This document shows positions 13,535 to 35,444 of a stretch of DNA of 64,000 nt, in pieces. The stretch is from positions 1,797 through 65,796 of the forward strand of contig JAOAJK010000008.1 in NCBI GenBank assembly GCA_026414225.1, written 5' to 3'. Source of the stretch: Thermoplasmata archaeon. Its GTDB lineage: Archaea > Thermoplasmatota > Thermoplasmata > Lutacidiplasmatales > SKW197. Every line of letters starts with the position of its first letter. The stretch's first letter is position 1. The position numbers and the translations under genes are program-made. The notes beneath the pieces were generated by a model that saw only the letters and a program-made list of their open reading frames with translations, searched no databases and was not told the DNA's origin.

Positions 13535-13606
<72 letters not shown>

Positions 13607-16037: not shown

Positions 16038-16114
16038 TGGTAGCGGGGAATGGATTTGAACCATTGATCTACGGGTTATGAGCCCGTCGGGATACCTGAC
16101 TACCCCACCCCGCT
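16038..16114 (-). tRNA. initiator tRNA-Met (anticodon CAU), CCA encoded
   Basis: The reverse complement is AGCGGGGTGGGGTAGTCAGGTATCCCGACGGGCTCATAACCCGTAGATCAATGGTTCAAATCCATTCCCCGCTACCA. It has an A1:U72 end and three consecutive G-C pairs closing the anticodon stem, which are archaeal initiator hallmarks. Confidence 0.9.
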
Positions 16115-26358: not shown

Positions 26359-26817
26359 ATGGAGAACCAACAGATTAACCTCCTGCTAGAAGACAAGATT
26401 CTCCTTCATCTCATGGATTTTGCCAAGTACAGGGGCAAATTTGAGAGCCCCAGTGGCGTGACAGTGGTAGGTATAAGCAGGGCTTTGCGGGTCCATCCGA
26501 GAATCCTTCCCCCTATCCTTGATAAACTCAAGTCCGTAAATCTGGTGTGTGAAGAATGGAACTGGGTAGTTGGGTGCAATGCCAAGAAAAAGGTGTATTT
26601 TCTTACTCCCACTGGGATTGCAGAGGCGAAAAGAATTCTTGAAAATCTGAAGAACCGTTCCGTGAGAATAAGGCATGGAAACAGGGAGTTTGATGCGAAG
26701 TTCTGCGATGTAAACTCAATTCTGGGCATGAACATGAGAACCGTGGAGATTCTCTGCTGCATGAGCGATGATGGCTGCATCGACCTCAACATGCGAAACC
26801 GTATGATAAGATTTTAA
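26359..26817 (+). CDS. putative winged-helix DNA-binding protein
   Basis: 152 aa. ILLHLMDF......GVTVVGISRALRV....ILPPILDKLKSVNLV......KKKVYFLTPTGI resembles a MarR/ArsR-like wHTH. Weak, motif-level only. Confidence 0.45.
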   Translation: MENQQINLLLEDKILLHLMDFAKYRGKFESPSGVTVVGISRALRVHPRILPPILDKLKSVNLVCEEWNWVVGCNAKKKVYFLTPTGIAEAKRILENLKNRSVRIRHGNREFDAKFCDVNSILGMNMRTVEILCCMSDDGCIDLNMRNRMIRF

Positions 26818-27281
26818 GCCCCCATGCCCACTTTTGGCTTTTCTTCACCACCTGCACCCATGCCTTCTTTTCGCAGTTCCTGGATTGATGGGATGAGCAT
26901 ACCCAGAATCGTGAGAAAGATAATGGTAATCATTATCATGGAAAAGACCAGCACTGGGGCGTCGAGCTGGACCACCCAGGACCATTCGGGTATCCACGAG
27001 GGGTCTGCAGGATTCCTGTAGGTCATGTTGGCATCCAGGATGTGAATGTCCCCGGGGTTCACAGAGATAAATATGAACATAATCACGATTGCCATTATCA
27101 GCAGGTACAGGTTGGCGCCGAGCGGTTGGGTCCAGTCCTCCTTTCCCCTGGGGTATCGGAGCGAGATGTAAATCAGGCAGGCAAGGATCAGGATTATGAT
27201 TGTCCAGAGCAGTGAGACATTCATCACAATATAGAGGAGCACGAAACCGACGAGCAAAATTATAAACACGATGATTTCCAA
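26814..27281 (-). CDS. small membrane protein (about 4 TM), last gene of the surface-protein/AAA operon
   Basis: 155 aa with hydrophobic helices; its start lies 9 nt after the AAA gene stop. Confidence 0.55.
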   Translation of the reverse strand: MEIIVFIILLVGFVLLYIVMNVSLLWTIIILILACLIYISLRYPRGKEDWTQPLGANLYLLIMAIVIMFIFISVNPGDIHILDANMTYRNPADPSWIPEWSWVVQLDAPVLVFSMIMITIIFLTILGMLIPSIQELRKEGMGAGGEEKPKVGMGA

Positions 27282-27290
27282 GGACTCACC

Positions 27291-30263
27291 TCACCTGGTT
27301 CCATACATGTCCATGAATGTTTTTGCCCACTCAAGGGTTTCAGGTGTGATTGATGAACGGGTCTTTGAAAGGGCTTCAAGCAGATGCTCCATTTTCACTC
27401 CGAAGCCAGCAGCATGGGTTCTACCCCTCTGCTCCGGGCTCACAACAGTGTCCAGATACCTTGTAAATTCCATTTTTGCCCTCGTTTCGGGTCTCTCAAC
27501 CCCATAACCCTCCTCCCTGGCTACCATCTCCCTGATCGCAATCAACTTTGCCTCGTCCACAATTGCGGCAATGTCTGCACCGCTATAGCCCTCTGTGCGG
27601 TGGGCAAGCAATTTGTAGTCAATGTAGCCAACGGTCGGCACATCCTTCAGGTGAATCTTGAAGATGTCCTCCCTCGCTTTCAGATCTGGCTGCGGCACAT
27701 AAAAGATTTTATCAAATCTGCCTGGGCGGAGAAGTGCAGGGTCCAGCAAATGGGGACGGTTGGTTGTGGCTACCACTATTACCCTGTCCTTCGGTCTTAC
27801 GCCATCAAGTTCGGTGAGGAATTGAGATACAGCACGGTTGACTTCGGGTGTCTTCATGCTCTCTTTCGAAGCAAGTGCATCGATTTCATCAAAGAAAAGG
27901 ATGGAGGGGGCATTCTCCCTTGCCCTCGACATCACATCCCTGATTGCTGCCTCACTCTGGCCAGCAAGGGCACTGACAAGCTCTGGACCATTCACGACCT
28001 GTATGGGCACATTAAGTTCATTGCTGGCTGCACGCATGATGTGGGTCTTTCCGCAGCCGGGAGGTCCGAAAAGCAGAATGCCTTTCCCTGTTTTCAGCTT
28101 GAATTGTTCCATCAGTTCGGGTTTTGTCAGCGGAAGCTCCACATACTCTCTTAGCGCCTTCTTCACCTCTTCCAGTCCACCAACATCGTCAAACTTTATC
28201 ACCACCTTCTTCTCGGCTCTCTGCAACTGGTGCATCTTTCTCTCGTAGTCCATCTTCAACTTCTCGTATTCCTCCTTCATGCGCAGGGTGATGCTCGGCT
28301 TGATGTTTGGAAGGACTGTCAGGAAGTCATCCATTGAAATCAGGGAGGGCGTGTTGGTCCTGAGGGACCGTTTCATTGCCAGAATTGCTGCTTCTCTGAC
28401 CAGGTTCGCCAGGTCAGCACCTGAAAACCTTTCAGTTCGTTTTGCAATTTCAGTTAAATCAATATCCGGTGCAGTGGGTTTACCCATCAGATGCACCTTC
28501 AAAATGTCAATTCGCTCCTCAAAGTCCGGCGGAGGCACATAGATTATCTTGTCAAATCTGCCTGGTCGCATCAGAGCAGGGTCAACCATTTCTGGCTTGT
28601 TCGTGGTGCCCACTACAATGACACCGCCCGCCTTATCCAGTCCATCCATTTCCGCCAAAATTATGCTGAGCAACCTTGGAGAAACATCATCTGCAGAGTA
28701 CATATCCCTTCTCTTCGCAATGGCATCAACCTCATCGAGGAAGAGAATACAGGGTTTCCGGTCCTTCGCGGTTTTGAAGAGTTCCGCCACACGGTTTTCA
28801 CTCTCCCCATACCATTTTGACATCAGGTCAGAACATTTCACGCTTATCATTTCCACATGAAGCTCACTTGCGAGGGCTTTCATCAGGAGGGTCTTACCAC
28901 AACCGGGTGGTCCAAAAAGCAGCAATCCTTTGGGGGGCTCAAGCCCGAACTGCTCTGCCACATCCCTCCGGAGCAGGGGGACTATCATTGACTCCCTGAT
29001 GTCCGCCTTCACATCCTTCAAGCCCCCCACCATGTCAAAGGTGGTCTTGCTCAATGCCTTCATCTCCGCAATCCTCGTGCCGACTGCAGTGGCACCGATC
29101 TTGCTGGCAAAGTAACTTGTGAAGATGTCCCTGGAGAGGAGACCTATCGCTGTGGCCAGAAACACTGCAGGGATTATTCCTGGAAGAAGGGTATACGCAA
29201 TCAGCGGATAACTGTAATTTGGATTCATTGCCATTGCAAGCCCGCTCGATGCCATTAGAATTCCAGCCCCTATCATTGAATAAACCACCCAGTTTACCAT
29301 TGTCATCTTTTCCCGGTGCTCTATCAGCAAACTCACTACATAGACAGCCAGTGCCCAGAGAATTATCTCGACGAAGGGCATCAGTGAAAGGCCGAAGTTG
29401 GCAATTGCGGTTTCGAATACACGGTTATCCAGATTTGTGATGTTTGCAAATGCCGCCCCGAAATCAGTCAGCTGGAAATTCGCCAATGCGGGTTTTACCG
29501 CTTCCGTGTGTCCGGCTACGAGGGTCTTCATCCCGGGAGCCAGGGGACCTACGAAGAAACCCAGCACCTGATAATTCCCAAGTGTTACAAACACCGTCAG
29601 TAAAATCGTGCCCACAATTGAGACCGCAAGTCCCAAGATAAGGGAATAGACCATCGCAGCCACCATTGGCACTACGAATGGGAAACCGAGGGGTGCGAGA
29701 AATAGCATGAGATAAACCAGTGCTCCGAATTTCCAGTCGAACAGAGATACGCAAAGCACAAAAATGGAGGCAACGAGAAACACAAAGCCGAGTTCTGGGG
29801 ACTGGTAGCCTATCTCGGCGGTGGTGAAAAATGTGACAAGGATGAGCGAGAGCAGGGGATAACGGAAAGAGATTACACCCACCACAAATGTGATGAATAG
29901 AATCATCCACCAGGGATAGAATGGCATGAACACACTTGAGATGAGCCCGAGTCCGGCAAATGCAAATACTTTCAACCACTGGGGTGATTTTGTTTCACGG
30001 TCTATAAACTCTTTCAATATTTTCTGAAAGGGCTGCTTTTTCTTTTTTTCTTCCTTTGGTTTTTCTTCCGCCACAACCACTTCCTGGGGCACCTGAACAG
30101 GATAGTAACCGCCACCGTAGGTGAAGAAGCCCCCGCCTGGCTGGGGCATCTGCTGCTGGGGATATGCGGGGACAAAGTAGGGTTGCTGGGGAGCACTTTC
30201 CTGCGGGGTCATGCCCCTGTCCTCAGTCCTGCTCCATCTTCTATTTTTTCCCATCATGTGCAT
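27291..30263 (-). CDS. membrane-integrated tandem AAA+ ATPase (Cdc48/VCP-like D1-D2) with P/Q/Y-rich N-terminus and polytopic TM domain replacing the Cdc48 N-domain
   Basis: 990 aa. aa 19-60: PQQPYFVPAYPQQQMPQPGGGFFTYGGGYYPVQVPQ. aa ~96-380: about 9-10 hydrophobic helices. D1: GPPGCGKT (aa 451-458) with ILFLDEVD. D2: GPPGCGKT (aa 733-740) with ILFFDEID. Both modules contain ...TNRP/TNKP..DPALLRPGRFD (SRH). Confidence 0.85.
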   Translation of the reverse strand: MHMMGKNRRWSRTEDRGMTPQESAPQQPYFVPAYPQQQMPQPGGGFFTYGGGYYPVQVPQEVVVAEEKPKEEKKKKQPFQKILKEFIDRETKSPQWLKVFAFAGLGLISSVFMPFYPWWMILFITFVVGVISFRYPLLSLILVTFFTTAEIGYQSPELGFVFLVASIFVLCVSLFDWKFGALVYLMLFLAPLGFPFVVPMVAAMVYSLILGLAVSIVGTILLTVFVTLGNYQVLGFFVGPLAPGMKTLVAGHTEAVKPALANFQLTDFGAAFANITNLDNRVFETAIANFGLSLMPFVEIILWALAVYVVSLLIEHREKMTMVNWVVYSMIGAGILMASSGLAMAMNPNYSYPLIAYTLLPGIIPAVFLATAIGLLSRDIFTSYFASKIGATAVGTRIAEMKALSKTTFDMVGGLKDVKADIRESMIVPLLRRDVAEQFGLEPPKGLLLFGPPGCGKTLLMKALASELHVEMISVKCSDLMSKWYGESENRVAELFKTAKDRKPCILFLDEVDAIAKRRDMYSADDVSPRLLSIILAEMDGLDKAGGVIVVGTTNKPEMVDPALMRPGRFDKIIYVPPPDFEERIDILKVHLMGKPTAPDIDLTEIAKRTERFSGADLANLVREAAILAMKRSLRTNTPSLISMDDFLTVLPNIKPSITLRMKEEYEKLKMDYERKMHQLQRAEKKVVIKFDDVGGLEEVKKALREYVELPLTKPELMEQFKLKTGKGILLFGPPGCGKTHIMRAASNELNVPIQVVNGPELVSALAGQSEAAIRDVMSRARENAPSILFFDEIDALASKESMKTPEVNRAVSQFLTELDGVRPKDRVIVVATTNRPHLLDPALLRPGRFDKIFYVPQPDLKAREDIFKIHLKDVPTVGYIDYKLLAHRTEGYSGADIAAIVDEAKLIAIREMVAREEGYGVERPETRAKMEFTRYLDTVVSPEQRGRTHAAGFGVKMEHLLEALSKTRSSITPETLEWAKTFMDMYGTR

Positions 30264-30268
30264 TCACC

Positions 30269-31957
30269 TCAAACCGTGATTCTTTTTTCCTCCTCTTCTG
30301 TTTTCTTTCTTCTATATCTGAAATACCAGGATATTGGAACCGTAATGCAAGCAATCACCACGAGTGAGATTGCTACAGGTAAATAATTTTCTGAAAACAT
30401 GTTGATTTCCGCATACACTGGTGGCTTATCTGGCTCGTTGAAAAGGAAGGTTATTGTTTTGTTTGACTCATTTGTGAGTTCGTAGAATACAGTTTTGGTA
30501 ATGCCGTTGTAGGTGACCTCCACCGTGTAATTGCCCATGTAGAGCATCTGGAGGTCTGTGCCACCTGTGACATTCGGATAGGCAAAACCCATTACATTGG
30601 TTCTGGTATTGCAATCCCAGGTTTCATTGTAAATTTTAACTTCTGCATCTTTCACATACTTGTAAACCCTGTCATTTCTATCATAATTCAGGACTACAAC
30701 ATAAAACCACGAGAGAGTTTTCCCACCCGGGGTACTTACCGTATAGTTCACCGTGTAGTTGTATTCCTTTGAGACCGTGAGATTGAGGAGGATATCGTAT
30801 GCCTTAATCCTGAACTTTACTGAGATACCTGGCGGAAGGCCATCAATCACATAGTACCAGGTTGTGGAATTTATTCTCTCAAATACATCAACGCCAGTGG
30901 AGGGTTCAAGCCCTTCAGCGGAAAGGGTATACTCTATGTAGGCCGCATAGATGCTCACATTTGAAATTCTTGAAATTATGGTGACATTCACCGGCTCTCC
31001 CGCAGACACGGTAGAATTTGGAGTTTCTATCACATCAGGGGATGTGCGGATAATGATGTTCTGCTCAAATTTGGGATACTGCCATGTATTATTTTTTGAA
31101 ACGGTGTAGGTATAGTTTCTGGATTGCAAACTTCTAGAAGCATCCTTAGAGTCATCGAAAGCCACGATGTAGAAGGTAATCACTGTCTCTGGCAAATACC
31201 CTGGAATTGGAGAGGTCAGCTTCATGGTGAAGGAATCCTCGGGTGCAAAGGGCCAGTTATTGTATTTATATACCTGAGACCCCTCTTTGACGGTAAGGTT
31301 CATGTAGGCGGTGCCAATTTTAATGCCCGACTTGGTTGAGTCAATTGTAATTGAAACGCTGTCGTAGGCGTTGGGTGCAGCACCGTTTATTACATCTGGT
31401 GTTGCAATTACATGTATGCATTTTTCAAATGCCTCCTCCACAGTATTATTGTATGGCCAGGCACCCTGAACTTTATAGTAATAGATGTTAGAGACAAGCG
31501 TTGAAGGGGTGCTGGTGTAGTTGGTGACCTCAATCCTCCACCAGACCTGAGAGCCAGCAGGGAAATATTTTGCATTGTTGATTATGCAGTAACCAGAGTA
31601 ATCATCAATTCTGCGAAAAGAAAAGATGCCGGGGTTCATGTTCGGGATTTTTCTTCCATCCCAGTACAGCGCAGAGGTGATATTTATCACCGCACTGTCC
31701 AGCATCGTGGTGTAGTTCCTTATCCGGACCGTCACATTTATATTCTGGTTCTTCTCGGGCATTAAAGTTCCGGCAGGAGGGATTGCGGGTGAGACCGTAA
31801 ACTCCACAATCTCTTCAAATGTCTGGTTGTTCCACTCCTTTGGTGACACTTTTGGATGGCTGGTGGCAGGGAAGCCATCTGCAGACAACACCACGAGTAT
31901 GTTTGAAGGCAATACCGCCAGAATTAGCAGCAGAATCGCAATTTTTTGCAGGTTCAC
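30269..31957 (-). CDS. tail-anchored cell-surface glycoprotein-like protein, paralog B
   Basis: Signal peptide MNLQKIAILLLILAVLPS; about twenty N-x-S/T sequons by eye; C-terminal TM plus tail RRKKTEEEEKRITV. It shares the GAWPY and YTYTVSKNNTWQYP motifs with the upstream gene. Confidence 0.7.
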   Translation of the reverse strand: MNLQKIAILLLILAVLPSNILVVLSADGFPATSHPKVSPKEWNNQTFEEIVEFTVSPAIPPAGTLMPEKNQNINVTVRIRNYTTMLDSAVINITSALYWDGRKIPNMNPGIFSFRRIDDYSGYCIINNAKYFPAGSQVWWRIEVTNYTSTPSTLVSNIYYYKVQGAWPYNNTVEEAFEKCIHVIATPDVINGAAPNAYDSVSITIDSTKSGIKIGTAYMNLTVKEGSQVYKYNNWPFAPEDSFTMKLTSPIPGYLPETVITFYIVAFDDSKDASRSLQSRNYTYTVSKNNTWQYPKFEQNIIIRTSPDVIETPNSTVSAGEPVNVTIISRISNVSIYAAYIEYTLSAEGLEPSTGVDVFERINSTTWYYVIDGLPPGISVKFRIKAYDILLNLTVSKEYNYTVNYTVSTPGGKTLSWFYVVVLNYDRNDRVYKYVKDAEVKIYNETWDCNTRTNVMGFAYPNVTGGTDLQMLYMGNYTVEVTYNGITKTVFYELTNESNKTITFLFNEPDKPPVYAEINMFSENYLPVAISLVVIACITVPISWYFRYRRKKTEEEEKRITV

Positions 31958-31959
31958 AA

Positions 31960-33819
31960 TTACACCGTAATTCGTTTTTCCTCCTCCTCCGCTTTTTTCC
32001 TTCGCTGGACAAAGTAGTAGATTAAAGGCACGAGGAATATAGTGATACCGATAACTTCTCCCACCATTACAATATAATCCGGCTCAGACACCTCTGCATA
32101 GACAGGCGGTGCCTTCGGGGCATTTAGATAGCAGGTGATCGTGTTGCCCTCACGGAAAACCCGCACCCTTGTTGGTTTACCCGTGAAGTTAATCACGGAC
32201 TCATAAAGGGTCTCGTTATCATCCTGCTCCCTTGTGAGATTGTAGGAGAAATAAATTGTGGTATTATTGTTACTGTCGAGGTAAATTATTATCACATATT
32301 TTTCTCCTACGGTGAGATAATAGGGGGCATACTTGTTCCCGGTCATGTTGGGATATGTATAGCCAGTATAGTCCGTCTGGGTGTGGCACTGCCAGCTATC
32401 ATTCAGAATCGTGATGTTCACGAAGGGTAGGGGTCTCTCCACCTGCTCCTTTATATCCACTACACCTACATAGAAAATTGCTCTGGTTTTGCTTACCGCA
32501 GGTGGTAGCGTTTTCACAGAGTATGTATAGTTTTTTGAGGTGATTGGAGTATTGTTGACATCCCAGGCACGAATGTAGAAGGTAACATTGACACCTTGTG
32601 GCTGTCCTGGTATTATGTAGTAAAATTCAGTGCTCTTTATTCTTATCATCTGGTTTTTTGCCTTAAGTGGAACATTGTGCCATGTGTTGGAGATTGTGTA
32701 ATAAATGTAGGCCACTTTTATCGGAACATCCGAGAACAGGGATTCAATTGTGATATTCACATCGATTCCAATGTCCACCTGCGGTGTCTTGGTGGTGTTT
32801 GCGGTCACATTCTCCGGCTTTGATTTCACCCTGATGTTCTGAGCGAAATTGCTGGGATACTTCCAGGTGCCATTTTTTGATACGGTGTATTCGTAGGTGT
32901 CAGAATAGATTTTGTGATAGAACGGATCCCATGCCACAATCCTAAACATGCATCTGATTTCAGGTTTTGAGTGGTAATATCCTGAAATTCTAGCAGTGGC
33001 ATTCTTTGAGGGCCACTCACCTTCGCCTGGGGAAAAACCCAGATAGAAATCTTCTGTGGTGGAATCCGGATAAACCACTCTGCCCTCAATCGAAGCCCCC
33101 TGCAACTTCACATTTACATCAGGCTTCGTTTCCACATATACATCAACAGGATCTCCAATGTTGGGAGAGGCAGGTGCGAAATAGGCGATGAGGTTTCTAT
33201 CAAACAGGTCCTGGAGGGGCGGCTTATAAGGCCATGCCCCTCCAATCTCAAATGTGTATCTGCTGGATTCCAGATAGTGGGTTATCCAAGTCCCTGTTTG
33301 GGCGTCGTATGTGCAGTTGGAAACTGCGACCCACCAGGTAATTTTGGAACCGGGCTGGAAATTATACTCTCCCCCATCTCCATTCCTCGCCCAGATGACA
33401 ACCTTTACCTTGTATTCGTTCTCGCGGTAGTAGTAAGGTGCAGCATGACCTGAAGAATTGCGATGCCACACGGTGCCATCGCTCTCAGAATACCACTCCG
33501 TGCCATCCCAGAGTACATTGGTCACATTGACCATTGCGGAGGGCTGATATTGCTCGTTGCTGCTCTCAATCTTGTAGGGAGGTCTTGCTTCAATCGTGAT
33601 TGTCACATTTTGTTCTGGCTCTATGTAGGGATGATTGATAACATCTGGTTCTGCATAAATAGTGGCATATTTTTCCAAACTCTCATTTGTGGGCCATAAT
33701 ATGACGGGATTATGTACGCCTGAAACGACTGGTAATGGTTTTCCGTCTCCATGTTGTGCAAATCCTGACGGAGAAAGCATGAACAGAAGTGCAATCAACC
33801 AGCAAACAATCCCTTTCAT
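31960..33819 (-). CDS. tail-anchored cell-surface glycoprotein-like protein, paralog A
   Basis: Signal peptide MKGIVCWLIALLFMLSPSGFA; many N-x-S/T sequons; GGAWPY and YEYTVSKNGTWKYP motifs; C-terminal TM plus tail RRKKAEEEEKRITV. Confidence 0.7.
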   Translation of the reverse strand: MKGIVCWLIALLFMLSPSGFAQHGDGKPLPVVSGVHNPVILWPTNESLEKYATIYAEPDVINHPYIEPEQNVTITIEARPPYKIESSNEQYQPSAMVNVTNVLWDGTEWYSESDGTVWHRNSSGHAAPYYYRENEYKVKVVIWARNGDGGEYNFQPGSKITWWVAVSNCTYDAQTGTWITHYLESSRYTFEIGGAWPYKPPLQDLFDRNLIAYFAPASPNIGDPVDVYVETKPDVNVKLQGASIEGRVVYPDSTTEDFYLGFSPGEGEWPSKNATARISGYYHSKPEIRCMFRIVAWDPFYHKIYSDTYEYTVSKNGTWKYPSNFAQNIRVKSKPENVTANTTKTPQVDIGIDVNITIESLFSDVPIKVAYIYYTISNTWHNVPLKAKNQMIRIKSTEFYYIIPGQPQGVNVTFYIRAWDVNNTPITSKNYTYSVKTLPPAVSKTRAIFYVGVVDIKEQVERPLPFVNITILNDSWQCHTQTDYTGYTYPNMTGNKYAPYYLTVGEKYVIIIYLDSNNNTTIYFSYNLTREQDDNETLYESVINFTGKPTRVRVFREGNTITCYLNAPKAPPVYAEVSEPDYIVMVGEVIGITIFLVPLIYYFVQRRKKAEEEEKRITV

Positions 33820-33836
33820 TCAAATAGAGCATTGGG

Positions 33837-33851
33837 TTTAAATATAAAAAA
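33837..33851 (-). promoter_or_regulatory. TATA-like box for the surface-protein/AAA operon
   Basis: The minus strand reads ttttttatatttaaa, about 20-30 nt upstream of the ATG at 33819 (short or no leader). Confidence 0.4.
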
Positions 33852-34078
33852 GTTGTGGTAAACCTGGCAGTGGGTGTATTATCAAGGGACCTCGCGAACG
33901 CCTGCAGGGAACAGGTAATCCATTAATTGATTTTTCTATCTCCGTCAACAGGCGCCGTGGACTCTTATGCCTTGCGTCCGTTGTTCATCTGGAGCGGGAA
34001 TAACCCCAACGATGAAACTGCCCACAGCAAAATATAAATCCAAGAACCGAATTATGGAAAGCAGAACAAGGTGATTTG

Positions 34079-34783
34079 ATGATGAATGGCTATGTTCATA
34101 CCTATGTCAAGGGTCTAGATGAGCGGATTGAAGGGGGGATACCGAAGGGACATATCGTGCTCATCTGCGGCCCCGCTGGAAGCATGAAATCCTCTTTTAC
34201 ATTTAACATAATGTACAACTATGTACGGGAAAGAAAGGGGAAAGCCCTCTACCTTACACTGGAGCAGAGCCGGGAAAGCTTGATAAAGCAGATGAAGAAA
34301 CTCAACATGGACCCGGACAAGTTTAAGGAGGACATAGCTATTCTTGATATTGCCTGGCTGAGGAAGGAGCTTGAGGAATCCGGCGAGAAATCAATTAACT
34401 GGTTTGATTCGGTGCAGAAACAGCTGGTGAGTTACAGAGAGTTCATAGATTATGACCTTCTTGGTTTTGATTCCCTGGATGCTCTCTACACCCTTTCAGC
34501 AATAGACAATCCGAGGAGTGCGCTTTTCTTCTTCTTTGAAAAACTCAGAAACATGAAAATAACAGCGCTGATCATCTCCGAGATGAGTCCTGAGCGGCTC
34601 CACTTTGGAAAGTATGGTGTTGAGCCATTCCTAGCAGATGGAATAATCCATCTGGACCTTGAAAGAATCGGGAAGACCGTGGGAAGATTCATCAGCATCG
34701 TGAAGATGCGAGAGGTGAAGCATCCCACCGACTATTTTCCGCTGCTTGTTGACAGTGAGGGCTTCAAGATTGTGACAAGGTAA
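34079..34783 (+). CDS. KaiC/RecA-superfamily ATPase-like protein with non-canonical P-loop
   Basis: GLDERIEGGIPKGHIVLICGPAGSMKSSF (Met replaces the Gly before the P-loop Lys), a Walker-B-like LLGFDSLDAL, and ...SIVKMREVKH. KaiC-like single domain. Confidence 0.7.
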   Translation: MMNGYVHTYVKGLDERIEGGIPKGHIVLICGPAGSMKSSFTFNIMYNYVRERKGKALYLTLEQSRESLIKQMKKLNMDPDKFKEDIAILDIAWLRKELEESGEKSINWFDSVQKQLVSYREFIDYDLLGFDSLDALYTLSAIDNPRSALFFFFEKLRNMKITALIISEMSPERLHFGKYGVEPFLADGIIHLDLERIGKTVGRFISIVKMREVKHPTDYFPLLVDSEGFKIVTR

Positions 34784-34787
34784 TCAG

Positions 34788-35444
34788 ATGAACTTTGATG
34801 AATGGGAGCCCATATACCTCAAAATCCTGCAGGATTTTGGATTTTCAAGAGTTGATGATGAGGTTGCAGGGGTAACTCTCTTCAATCTTTTATCGGGAAA
34901 AAATCTTGTAAAACTGACAGAATTTGAAGAGCTCCTTATTGGCAAGGTAGTATGCGTTGTCGGGAATGCTCCGCATACTTTTGAGGCGCTACCAGATGCT
35001 GATGTTTACATTGCTGCAGACGGTGCAGCTAAAAAGATGCTTGAACACGGGACTCTCCCTGCAATAATCACCACCGACCTCGATGGAGATGTGAATGCTC
35101 AGATAAAGGCGAATAATGAAGGCACAATCGTTGTAGTGCATGCCCACGGAGATAACATCCCTCTTCTACAAAAGTATGTGCCCAGATTCAGGGGAAAGAT
35201 CATCGGCTCCACCCAGTCAACCCCTTACACACGTCTCATAAATTTTGGTGGTTTCACGGATGGGGACAGGGCGGTGTGCCTTGCCGCCCATTTCGAAGCG
35301 CGGGAAATCCTGCTCAAAAATTTCGATTTTGAAGATGTTTCTGCCGAAGAACCGGAAGTACGGGAAATAAAATTGAAAAAGCTGAAATGGGCGAAGAAGA
35401 TAATTGAGAACTGCGGGAAAAAGTCAGCGATTAAGTTTGTTTGA
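34788..35444 (+). CDS. mptE: 6-hydroxymethyl-7,8-dihydropterin pyrophosphokinase, archaeal MptE-like (DUF115)
   Basis: VCVVGNAP...AADGAA...ITTDLDGD...VVVHAHGDN...GFTDGDRA matches the MptE/DUF115 pattern. Confidence 0.7.
   Translation: MNFDEWEPIYLKILQDFGFSRVDDEVAGVTLFNLLSGKNLVKLTEFEELLIGKVVCVVGNAPHTFEALPDADVYIAADGAAKKMLEHGTLPAIITTDLDGDVNAQIKANNEGTIVVVHAHGDNIPLLQKYVPRFRGKIIGSTQSTPYTRLINFGGFTDGDRAVCLAAHFEAREILLKNFDFEDVSAEEPEVREIKLKKLKWAKKIIENCGKKSAIKFV

Follow-up and report, generated by a model that had tools for sequence, protein, structure and literature searches.

Which kind of machine, if any, do two glycoprotein paralogs, a membrane-bound ATPase and a small membrane protein form when their genes are packed together in an archaeal genome? 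This question is raised by four ORFs (g1-g2-g3-g4) on the minus strand of the window, a 64,000-nucleotide stretch of a contig from an uncultured Thermoplasmata archaeon. The four ORFs are separated by intergenic gaps of 2, 5 and 9 nt, and a regex scan of positions 26700-33950 found TTTATATT as the sole TATA-like motif on the minus strand. The ORFs and the motif scan thus reproduced the layout proposed in the first-pass annotation, namely four minus-strand genes behind a single TATA-like box. Shine-Dalgarno-like sequences are located upstream of g3 (GAGGTGA) and of g4 (GGTGAGGTGA). The unit comprises the following features:

33841-33848, minus strand: TATA-like box, about 28 nt 5' of the g1 ATG (regex scan)
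31960-33819, minus strand: g1, surface glycoprotein paralog 1, 619 amino acids (ORF, hydropathy, paralogy, sequons)
30269-31957, minus strand: g2, surface glycoprotein paralog 2, 562 amino acids (ORF, hydropathy, paralogy, sequons)
27291-30263, minus strand: g3, membrane-anchored double-AAA ATPase, 990 amino acids (ORF, Pfam, AlphaFold2)
26814-27281, minus strand: g4, small membrane protein, 155 amino acids (ORF, hydrophobic stretches)

Gene products and their linkage

The g1 and g2 proteins are paralogs that align along their entire length with 30% identity (E 2e-54), and each has an N-terminal hydrophobic signal-like segment and a single C-terminal transmembrane (TM) segment. In g1, a signal peptide (amino acids 1-22) is followed by an all-beta ectodomain, a TM anchor (581-605) and a cytoplasmic tail, and g2 likewise consists of a signal peptide, a beta-sandwich ectodomain, a TM anchor (522-547) and a cytoplasmic tail. 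Both proteins contain 21 N-x-S/T sequons, compared with 5.8 (g1) and 7.2 (g2) in composition-preserving shuffles (z = 7.1 and 5.7, respectively). Hydropathy and shuffles therefore support the earlier view of two sequon-rich proteins with a signal peptide and one C-terminal TM helix.

Scans with Pfam, NCBIfam and PADLOC gave nothing usable for g1, g2 and g4, and a glycoprotein alignment profile returned nothing below E 0.1 from the PDB sequences. The AlphaFold2 model of g2 is all-beta with one C-terminal helix and of low confidence (pLDDT 59.7), since the available alignment was shallow; a word-filtered search of a large protein collection gave 2 proteins for g2 and 6 for a 30-sequence profile. 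Using this low-confidence model, Foldseek retrieved tandem Ig/FN3/MG-like proteins, which are generic beta-sandwiches and do not indicate a function. Neither g1 nor g2 matches a Pfam or NCBIfam model that would place it among sortase-type or S-layer proteins (PGF-CTERM and similar), and beyond the basic cluster, the g1/g2 tail continues with an additional conserved acidic/basic segment.

The hydrophobic stretches of g4 fit about four TM helices, as had been proposed, and the protein has a conserved (K/R)YP..DW loop. All low-GC clades, and Natronoplasma as well (E 3.6e-24), have a g4 homolog directly 3' of the ATPase gene; between the two kinds of downstream small membrane protein, homology is undetectable (hhalign probability 0.65%). 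At the other end of the unit, the first gene is a g1 ortholog in the high-GC clade as well as in Natronoplasma (E 4e-100) and the closest relative.

The first-pass annotation had named as a point against a functional unit that the ATPase might occur mostly without adjacent surface-protein genes. The opposite was found: among the related loci with upstream sequence (n = 38, 36 distinct ATPases), a g1/g2 homolog is adjacent or fused to the ATPase in all 38. In 34 of these it lies directly 5' of the ATPase gene on the same strand with an overlapping or 1-20 nt junction, while the remaining 4 (L018, L019, L022, L023) contain an in-frame g1/g2-ATPase fusion. The genes that flank the unit in the window are housekeeping genes (PurH, radical SAM, KaiC-like, MptE-like), and none of them is a conserved neighbor, which indicates that the four-gene unit is autonomous. 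The unit was seen solely in uncultured Thermoplasmatota, and no cultured host was found in genome scans. In agreement with the initial statement that no described system has this composition, literature searches returned no description of the module, the nearest mention being the Sulfolobus MBA. As the parts are together or fused in every relative examined, they probably constitute an undescribed membrane machine.

That the four genes are chance neighbors, belong to a mobile or defense island, or owe the joining of TM and AAA regions to an assembly artefact is effectively refuted. The defense-island explanation draws on PADLOC IetA models, which match g3 with E 6e-76. However, the matches are confined to the generic AAA core, an IetS-like partner is missing, and the score of g3 with the NCBIfam IteA model is 236 against a cut-off of 510, so that the locus is not an Iet system (IetA plus the subtilisin-like protease IetS). 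Moreover, PADLOC has no matches for g1, g2 and g4, no relative of the unit was detected in 2.9 million viral contigs, and both the housekeeping nature of the flanking genes and the invariable linkage speak against an island or chance. As for an assembly chimera, which the first reading had considered, more than 110 independent protein clusters (NCBI, JGI, ENA, Logan) contain the TM-AAA junction and span 91-100% of g3.

The ATPase and its membrane domain

The g3 protein was divided into four regions:

30033-30263, minus strand: amino acids 1-77, putatively cytoplasmic low-complexity N-terminus rich in Q, P, G and Y, then a K/E-rich stretch (composition)
29061-30032, minus strand: amino acids 78-401, about 9-10 helices forming a polytopic membrane domain, and a linker helix (AlphaFold2)
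28248-29060, minus strand: D1 AAA domain (Pfam, motif mapping)
27294-28223, minus strand: D2 AAA domain (Pfam, motif mapping)

Pfam identified two units of AAA plus AAA_lid_3 (PF00004, E 8e-85; PF17862, E 7e-29; two stretches each), and with Walker A and B motifs, the second region of homology, Arg fingers and the lid, g3 belongs to the classical AAA clade. Cdc48, p97 and VAT of Thermoplasma acidophilum have the same two classical-clade AAA domains with AAA_lid_3, and VAT is the best solved-structure match (E 1e-132), which substantiates the original designation of g3 as Cdc48-like. Unlike Cdc48 and VAT, g3 has no N-terminal double-psi-barrel substrate/adaptor domain (no Pfam match to CDC48_N or CDC48_2) and a novel membrane domain instead, the pore loop of its D2 lacks aromatic residues, the g3 family can do without D2, and its C-terminus is not of the HbYX type. 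Its score with the NCBIfam CDC48 model TIGR01243 is 550.9 bits, below the cut-off of 802.65.

D1 contains the Walker A motif GPPGCGKT (amino acid 451), the pore loop KWYG (483-486), the Walker B residues DE (510-511) and the Arg fingers R566 and R569, none of which varies among the 116 family members or in any of the fused and short forms. The closest solved domain to D1 is the D2 ring of VAT/p97, which is the main threading ring of these proteins. D2 of g3 has an intact Walker A (amino acid 733) and Walker B (792-793) and a non-aromatic pore loop (SALAGQSE), while in most other lineages D2 is absent or devoid of Walker and pore-loop residues, and family members with a single AAA domain exist (e.g., P0123). 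The description as a D1-D2 ATPase is accordingly correct for g3 itself but does not capture the core of the family, whose conserved motor, as judged from these sequences, is D1.

N-terminal of D1, multiple hydrophobic segments are present, and the AlphaFold2 model of the membrane domain shows about 9-10 helices (pLDDT 86, pTM 0.83). The family alignment of this domain (A4) contains the motifs PFYPWW, AYQxPEFG and FDW(K/R)FG. Searches with the model by Foldseek gave no match in the PDB (best E 0.54, TM < 0.2) or in BFVD, Pfam had no match for 13 membrane domains of the family, and just 32 representative clusters among 1.84 billion proteins matched the domain. Model and searches together confirm that a polytopic membrane domain replaces the Cdc48 N-domain, and the predicted fold of this domain is so far unmatched. 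The last TM helix ends near amino acid 380 and Walker A begins at 451; hence, the ring must sit near the membrane. Hydropathy and the positive-inside rule gave no single topology for g3, and the helix count clashes with the parity needed for both ends to be cytoplasmic. In homologs, the position of amino acids 1-77 is occupied by zinc ribbons or TM-ectodomain-TM inserts.

Surface proteins as subunits or clients

In the four fused loci and in 14 protein clusters, signal peptide, ectodomain, anchor helix, membrane domain and AAA region form a single polypeptide, and such fusions make up 15 of the about 22 full-length representative clusters that contain the membrane domain. Since ectodomain and anchor helix here constitute the N-terminus of the ATPase, the fusions argue that g1 and g2 are probably fixed extracellular subunits and not merely substrates. 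The earlier suggestion that the co-encoded surface proteins are clients of the ATPase is thus weakened insofar as many lineages translate these segments as part of the ATPase, which makes a role as mere substrates unlikely.

The cytoplasmic tails, which bear most directly on a client role, are located as follows:

31963-32004, minus strand: g1 cytoplasmic tail RRKKAEEEEKRITV-COOH (best-conserved segment in both paralog groups)
30272-30316, minus strand: g2 cytoplasmic tail RRKKTEEEEKRITV-COOH (sequence)

If g1 and g2 were clients, the ATPase would grip their cytoplasmic C-termini and extract, recycle or quality-control them in the manner of Msp1 or FtsH, a reading that we consider rather unlikely. 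It would account for the ending (K/R)R(I/V)T(L/V)-COOH, which in two clades is conserved better than any other part of g1/g2 and is present in 22 of 22 sequences of the two-paralog clades, as well as for the higher mean pairwise identity of the tails (57%) than of the ectodomains (30%) in the g1/g2 paralog groups. The C-terminus is free and partly hydrophobic, like C-terminal tags for AAA+ pores, of which ssrA-type degrons are the known example, and D1 retains a membrane-facing aromatic pore loop. In the fused forms, however, the equivalent of the tail is an internal linker into the ATPase membrane domain and therefore cannot be a free degron. In addition, the Natronoplasma orthologs and the single-gene clades are devoid of the motif while the unit is otherwise unchanged, and a dedicated substrate that is co-translated in fixed order with its own unfoldase would be unusual. 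A relation between the tail motif and clades with an intact D2 did not hold, as the Natronoplasma unit has an intact D2 and no motif.

Extracellular domains are also attached to the motor by another route. ATPases of the high-GC clade have one or two TM-ectodomain-TM inserts of their own, and the coupling of extracellular domains to the motor is therefore recurrent. In this clade, the unit sits in same-strand clusters of genes for signal-peptide, C-terminally anchored proteins with PKD, CarboxypepD_reg and PEGA domains.

Persistent coupling through subunits, fusions or inserts and the location among surface-protein gene clusters would also be expected of a force transmitter without threading, in which ring motion is passed through the membrane domain and the anchor helices to the extracellular beta-sandwich domains. 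Such a device could serve the assembly or remodeling of a surface coat, adhesion or the shaping of a wall-less cell by the mechanotransmission principle of FtsEX or MacB, and the resemblance of the ectodomains to tandem Ig/FN3-like adhesin modules, as seen in the low-confidence model, would fit. We nevertheless regard this as doubtful, as the invariant KWYG and Arg fingers of D1 are a signature of polypeptide threading and not of signaling alone, and no classical AAA protein is known to work in this mode.

A candidate dislocase and its relation to known machines

Our preferred reading, held tentatively, is that the four genes encode one membrane-spanning AAA+ dislocase or remodeler of membrane-anchored envelope proteins. 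Here, g3 would be a hexamer that forms a ring of the Cdc48/VAT type right under the membrane, held there by the polytopic domain, with g1 and g2 as permanent extracellular subunits, each connected via one anchor helix and a short cytoplasmic tail, and g4 as a small accessory membrane subunit. The glycosylated ectodomains might act as an outward-facing receptor or crown, and the aromatic pore loops of D1 would face the membrane. In double-ring AAA unfoldases of solved structure, substrate passes through the N-terminal ring first and the C-terminal ring second; by this precedent, polypeptide would be drawn in at the membrane side and moved toward the cytoplasm, which would make the machine FtsH-like or Cdc48-ERAD-like.

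Against a dislocase, g3 has no protease domain (no Peptidase_M41 among the best 25 of 53 matching Pfam families, and no HExxH motif), and its C-terminus (...MYGTR, in the family ...YGTR(x)) is not the canonical HbYX motif (hydrophobic residue, Tyr, any residue, COOH) by which ATPases dock to the 20S proteasome, the Tyr being 4-5 residues from the end. Dragging folded, glycosylated ectodomains across the membrane would be costly. The conserved tail motif, furthermore, is clade-specific, and confidence in the g2 model is low.

In the quality control of membrane proteins, a central part is played by membrane-bound AAA+ unfoldases, among them FtsH, Msp1 and Cdc48-ERAD. To our knowledge, FtsH is not known in archaea and little is known about how archaea remove or remodel surface-anchored glycoproteins, for which the unit is a concrete, conserved candidate. 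It joins a Cdc48/VAT-derived motor to a membrane domain unmatched among solved structures, its lasting partnership with extracellular glycoprotein domains is repeatedly backed by natural gene fusions, and the evolutionary series from double to single ring marks D1 as the essential motor. Should the dislocase interpretation prove true, no earlier prokaryotic machine would have been shown to link a receptor outside the cell with a Cdc48-type puller in the cytoplasm; should it prove false, the membrane fold and the AAA+ architecture would both still be new and call for an explanation.

The architecture of g3 resembles that of FtsH in that a membrane-anchored classical AAA ring lies near the bilayer with the TM domain directly before D1, and the match to the NCBIfam FtsH model begins at the last TM helix and continues through D1 (g3 residues 355-635). 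Extracytoplasmic domains stand between or beside the TM helices in both, here contributed by g1/g2, by fusion or by inserts, and some members of the g3 family have an FtsH-like TM-ectodomain-TM N-terminus or, as in P0123, one AAA domain. FtsH itself carries a C-terminal M41 zinc metalloprotease domain, which g3 does not have, and spans the membrane with 2 helices, compared with 9-10 in g3. In addition, g3 is accompanied by separate glycoprotein subunits and contains two AAA domains, and it scores 475.6 bits with TIGR01241 (cut-off 600). Msp1/ATAD1 and Pex1/Pex6 are likewise membrane classical AAA rings whose aromatic pore loops could pull proteins by a cytoplasmic end, and the short exposed cytoplasmic C-termini of g1/g2 would fit such extraction. 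However, Msp1 is built with a single TM helix and a single AAA domain, and the proteins it acts on are neither co-encoded with it nor fused to it; the partners here, g1 and g2, are surface proteins of type I topology with a large extracellular part.

The combination of non-cytoplasmic domain, polytopic membrane segments and Cdc48-type motor is also that of ERAD (Cdc48-Hrd1), although the unit has no homology to Hrd1, Der1 or Yos9 and its motor is covalently membrane-bound. A more specific proposal, to which we give little credence at present, is that the unit is the prokaryotic counterpart of ERAD, in which an extracellular glycoprotein receptor, a new-fold membrane conduit and a Cdc48-type motor, combined in one unit, would recognize surface (glyco)proteins on the outside and draw them back through the cytoplasmic membrane to be recycled. 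Such an ERAD-like unit would have evolved independently of eukaryotic Hrd1 in Thermoplasmatota other than Thermoplasmatales.

The same parts might instead work in the outward direction, with the ring pushing unfolded surface proteins through a channel in the membrane domain. AAA+ rings are coupled to a membrane pore or basket in PTEX (HSP101-EXP2-PTEX150) of Plasmodium, where HSP101 feeds EXP2, and in Bcs1, which moves the Rieske protein. The unit does bring together the parts for this, namely a ring ATPase, a large and novel membrane domain and an extracellular crown, and neighboring genes code for many secreted, anchored proteins. We consider export or insertion very improbable all the same. 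The membrane domain of g3 is on the N-terminal, i.e., entry side of D1, so that the C-terminal ring, where the substrate exits, points away from the membrane, whereas in PTEX and Bcs1, which differ in ATPase clade or architecture, the pore is on the exit side. The membrane-distal D2 ring has no aromatic pore loop and is degenerate or missing in other lineages, g1, g2 and the neighboring proteins have ordinary signal peptides, which suggests export by Sec, and no sequence or fold similarity of g3 to PTEX or Bcs1 was detected.

Among archaeal proteins, MBA ("membrane-bound AAA") of Sulfolobus solfataricus is a membrane-bound classical AAA protein in a separate archaeal AAA cluster (PMC3493965). 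Serek-Heuberger and colleagues reportedly described MBA proteins in 2009 as crenarchaeal, with one AAA domain, no more than two TM segments and neither a polytopic domain nor linked glycoprotein genes, and it is in these reported features that g3 differs from them. Thermoplasmata are described as being without PAN (PMC3493965). With the PAN models, g3 scores 477 for TIGR01242 (cut-off 500) and 502.9 bits for NF003069 (cut-off 500), the latter only by summing two AAA domains, and its N-terminus is a membrane domain, compared with the coiled coil, OB domain and single AAA domain of PAN.

Gene layout and transcription signals

The unit comprises four open reading frames and one promoter-like motif:

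31960-33819, minus strand: g1, surface glycoprotein, 619 aa
30269-31957, minus strand: g2, paralogous surface glycoprotein, 562 aa
27291-30263, minus strand: g3, membrane-domain double-AAA ATPase, 990 aa
26814-27281, minus strand: g4, small membrane protein, 155 aa
33841-33848, minus strand: TATA-like motif TTTATATT, ~28 nt upstream of the g1 ATG

The four minus-strand genes, the gaps of 2, 5 and 9 nt (g1-g2, g2-g3 and g3-g4, respectively) and the single upstream TATA-like box were all found as claimed in the first-pass annotation, the box being the only such motif on this strand in a scan of positions 26700-33950. GAGGTGA lies upstream of g3 and GGTGAGGTGA upstream of g4. Such a layout is expected where the first gene is leaderless or has a short leader and the internal genes use ribosome-binding sites, and it suggests that g1 to g4 are co-transcribed.

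On the plus strand, a 152-aa ORF without a Pfam match (26359-26817) is convergent with g4, with an overlap of 4 nt at the g4 stop codon; this ORF is also present in the closest relative (locus L051, 8815-9273), and no homolog was found among loci L001-L036. Two genes run divergently from g1 (34076-35444, plus strand). One encodes a KaiC-like ATPase with a single domain (PF06745, E = 3e-43), the other an MptE-like 6-hydroxymethylpterin diphosphokinase. L015 and L027 likewise have a KaiC-like gene less than 7 kb from the unit, perhaps by coincidence. Rfam matched nothing in the window apart from two tRNA genes, at 13535-13606 (plus strand) and 16041-16114 (minus strand).

Membrane domain and AAA motor of g3

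In g3, a hydrophobic region is followed by two AAA plus AAA_lid_3 units identified with Pfam (first and second AAA domains, D1 and D2), and its best relatives among solved structures were VAT, p97 and Cdc48, in keeping with its earlier description as a Cdc48-like D1-D2 ATPase. Uncultured Thermoplasmata supply more than 110 protein clusters that span 91-100% of g3, membrane region included; the junction between TM helices and AAA domains is therefore real, and an assembly chimera is excluded. Since a HMMER scan of residues 60-420 against 1.84 billion representative proteins matched only 32 clusters, the family is small. The AlphaFold2 model of these residues, built on 48 sequences, was confident (pLDDT 86, pTM 0.83) and contained ~9-10 helices plus a linker helix leading into D1, which agrees with the suggestion that ~9-10 TM helices replace the N-domain. 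Foldseek searches with the model retrieved nothing similar from PDB (best E = 0.54, TM-scores < 0.2) or BFVD, and the membrane domains of 13 members had no match in Pfam. The aromatic/polar motifs PFYPWW, AYQxPEFG and FDW(K/R)FG of this domain are invariant or nearly so. Given the AAA domains downstream and the N-terminal zinc ribbons of some homologs, both of its ends are probably cytoplasmic; the modelled helix count does not fit the parity that this requires.

The N-terminus of the ATPase varies. In Candidatus Natronoplasma and relatives (P0107-P0109; L053, 3781-7041) it consists of zinc ribbons (DZR, Zn_ribbon_3), which lie in the cytoplasm, and a linker rich in Pro and Glu; in the window protein this position is taken by a low-complexity stretch rich in Q/P/G/Y (30033-30263). 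The ATPases of the high-GC soil clade (P0006, P0068 and P0087; e.g. L001-L014) are longer (~1200-1350 aa), with one or two additional N-terminal TM-ectodomain-TM inserts of ~160 aa (conserved motifs such as YLTLDAxADAT and QPYP; no Pfam match). The window protein does not share this arrangement, which resembles that of FtsH.

Among 116 family members, Walker A, Walker B, the KWYG pore loop and the Arg fingers of D1 are invariant, the Walker motifs and Arg fingers of D2 are retained but its pore loop is non-aromatic (SALAGQSE), and the C-terminus reads YGTR(x), not HbYX. In clades other than the window, high-GC and Natronoplasma ones, the Walker A threonine and Walker B glutamate of D2 are gone, in a few forms together with the Walker A lysine, and several forms (e.g. 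P0123 and P0150) have no D2 at all. D1 is unchanged in all lineages whatever the state of D2, so that the conserved core consists of ectodomain, membrane domain and one AAA ring. The closest match to D1 of g3, taken alone, is the D2 ring of VAT/p97. With the last TM helix ending at about residue 380 and Walker A starting at residue 451, the AAA ring must be near the membrane; the alignment to the NCBIfam FtsH model runs from this helix into D1. Neither a protease domain nor HExxH was found in g3. In L026 (10243-12676; long-read MAG contig, MFD00008.bin.2.157) the ATPase gene is broken into at least four ORF pieces, reflecting either a pseudogene or assembly frameshift errors.

Glycoprotein partners, linkage and fusion

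g1 and g2 are 30% identical over a full-length alignment (E = 2e-54), each with a hydrophobic signal-like segment at the N-terminus and a single C-terminal TM segment. Both contain 21 N-x-S/T sequons, while shuffles gave 5.8 and 7.2 (z = 7.1 and 5.7, respectively), an enrichment also seen across the family; the alignment, hydropathy segments and sequon counts thus support their description as sequon-rich, signal-peptide paralogs with one C-terminal TM helix. No match to g1, g2 or g4 was found in Pfam, NCBIfam or PADLOC. The shared glycoprotein core comprises two copies of a ~100-aa beta module, which is found again in further anchored surface proteins of archaea (P0125, P0126), a prealbumin/CarboxypepD_reg-like module, a stalk, the anchor helix and a tail, with ~190 extra N-terminal residues in the two-paralog clades. 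The AF2 model of g2 was all-beta and of low confidence, and since its Foldseek matches were generic tandem Ig/FN3/MG-like proteins, no function was drawn from them.

Two genome scans and three contig look-ups yielded 38 loci (36 distinct ATPases) with the membrane-domain ATPase and upstream sequence. In all 38, a g1/g2 homolog either directly precedes the ATPase gene on the same strand or forms one protein with the ATPase; the concern that the family might occur mostly without adjacent surface-protein genes was thus not borne out. Three architectures were observed. In the first, two paralogs precede the ATPase and a small protein (window, GCA_038872375.1, Candidatus Natronoplasma and the high-GC soil clade, which includes Candidatus Lutacidiplasma). 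GCA_038872375.1, the closest relative, has a 90% identical ATPase and shares the four-gene set and the downstream neighbours, and the Natronoplasma orthologs of g1, g2 and g4 matched with E values of 4e-100, 1e-104 and 4e-24, respectively. In the second, found in MAGs labelled Methanomassiliicoccales (e.g. UBA147 and UBA280) and related MAGs, one shorter glycoprotein is followed by the ATPase and a g4-type protein. The third (L018, L019, L022, L023 and 14 protein clusters) joins signal peptide, ~350-aa ectodomain, anchor helix, short basic linker, membrane domain and AAA in one reading frame, and such fusions account for 15 of the ~22 full-length representative clusters.

As ectodomain and anchor are fused to the ATPase in most representative lineages, there is strong evidence that the glycoproteins would belong permanently, as subunits, to a single complex that includes the ATPase. 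The first-pass annotation had proposed that the ATPase may extract, remodel or quality-control the co-encoded surface proteins via their cytoplasmic tails; their partnership stands, and the natural fusions argue against their being mere clients. That g1 and g2 are the actual clients, held by their tails, is unlikely in view of these fusions. In the window and high-GC clades the tail is the most conserved part of both paralogs (mean pairwise identity 57% vs. 30% for the ectodomain) and ends in (K/R)R(I/V)T(L/V)-COOH. This motif is weak in fusions and absent from single-gene clades and the Natronoplasma orthologs, and therefore has no universal role in the mechanism.

A fragment with an ATPase 76% identical to g3 and a g4 homolog (L020, contig CAILMU010000178.1) is filed as 'Candidatus Micrarchaeota', probably a binning error, and the match in L025 (Micrarchaeia) is limited to the AAA part. 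Two fused proteins (P0120, aa 1321-1353; P0132, C-terminus) end in a proline-rich linker and then a SAP domain (PF02037, E = 6e-8). SAP is commonly associated with binding to nucleic acids, and its presence in an AAA protein of the membrane was unexpected.

Possible mode of action, known systems and surroundings

In solved Cdc48, VAT and FtsH complexes, the polypeptide is pulled in from the N-terminal (entry) side. The invariant aromatic pore loop of D1 lies by the membrane on this side, which argues for a pull from the membrane towards the cytoplasm. A polypeptide would be drawn from the membrane side into the cytoplasm through the D1 pore, and the extracellular glycoprotein crown would serve as receptor. 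By analogy, the unit may tentatively be regarded as an FtsH-like or ERAD-like dislocase/remodeller that acts on envelope proteins and is equipped with this extracellular crown as its receptor. However, neither a protease nor a proteasome-docking motif in g3 explains the fate of any extracted protein. A force transmitter that acts outside the cell and does not thread its substrate is rather doubtful, and a device for outward export appears very improbable.

g3 is a member of the classical AAA clade, with AAA domains of Cdc48/VAT-type derivation. Unlike Cdc48/VAT, it has neither the N-domain nor HbYX and scores under the curated cut-off; nor does it have the defining features of PAN, or those of FtsH, whose protease it lacks. 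The only described archaeal membrane-bound AAA group found was the Sulfolobus MBA cluster (PMC3493965). No description of the unit itself was found in the literature searched. The MBA proteins reportedly combine just one AAA domain with one or two TM segments. The unit can be viewed as a membrane-anchored AAA+ unfoldase in which the novel membrane fold and the fixed extracellular glycoprotein partner are new.

The flanking genes in the window (PurH, radical SAM, KaiC-like, MptE-like, FKBP) are not conserved beside the unit in other loci; it is thus autonomous. No mobile element is evident at its site, viral contigs contained no relative, and an origin by chance or from a defence island is scarcely credible. 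In the high-GC clade the unit belongs to a longer run of same-strand genes whose products have signal peptides, C-terminal anchors and PKD, CarboxypepD_reg and PEGA domains. The UBA147-like clade has an extra anchored, proline-rich protein of ~440 aa upstream (L015, 7404-8717; L017, 7623-8948; equivalents in L016, L024, L027 and L028), with a signal peptide, a poly-proline stretch, a C-terminal anchor with basic tail and no Pfam match.

g4 has ~4 TM helices, and in all low-GC clades and Natronoplasma a g4-type gene follows the ATPase with gaps of up to ~20 nt, its products sharing a conserved (K/R)YP..DW loop. In the high-GC clade this position is occupied by another protein, which has two TM helices, a PSFEVYRP motif and no detectable homology to g4 (hhalign probability 0.65%). 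In L009 (12798-16904), L010 (12795-16910) and L014 (12795-16913), this 2-TM protein shares a continuous reading frame with a surface protein of >1300 aa encoded downstream; either fusion has occurred here as well, or the ORF has been drawn too long in high-GC DNA.
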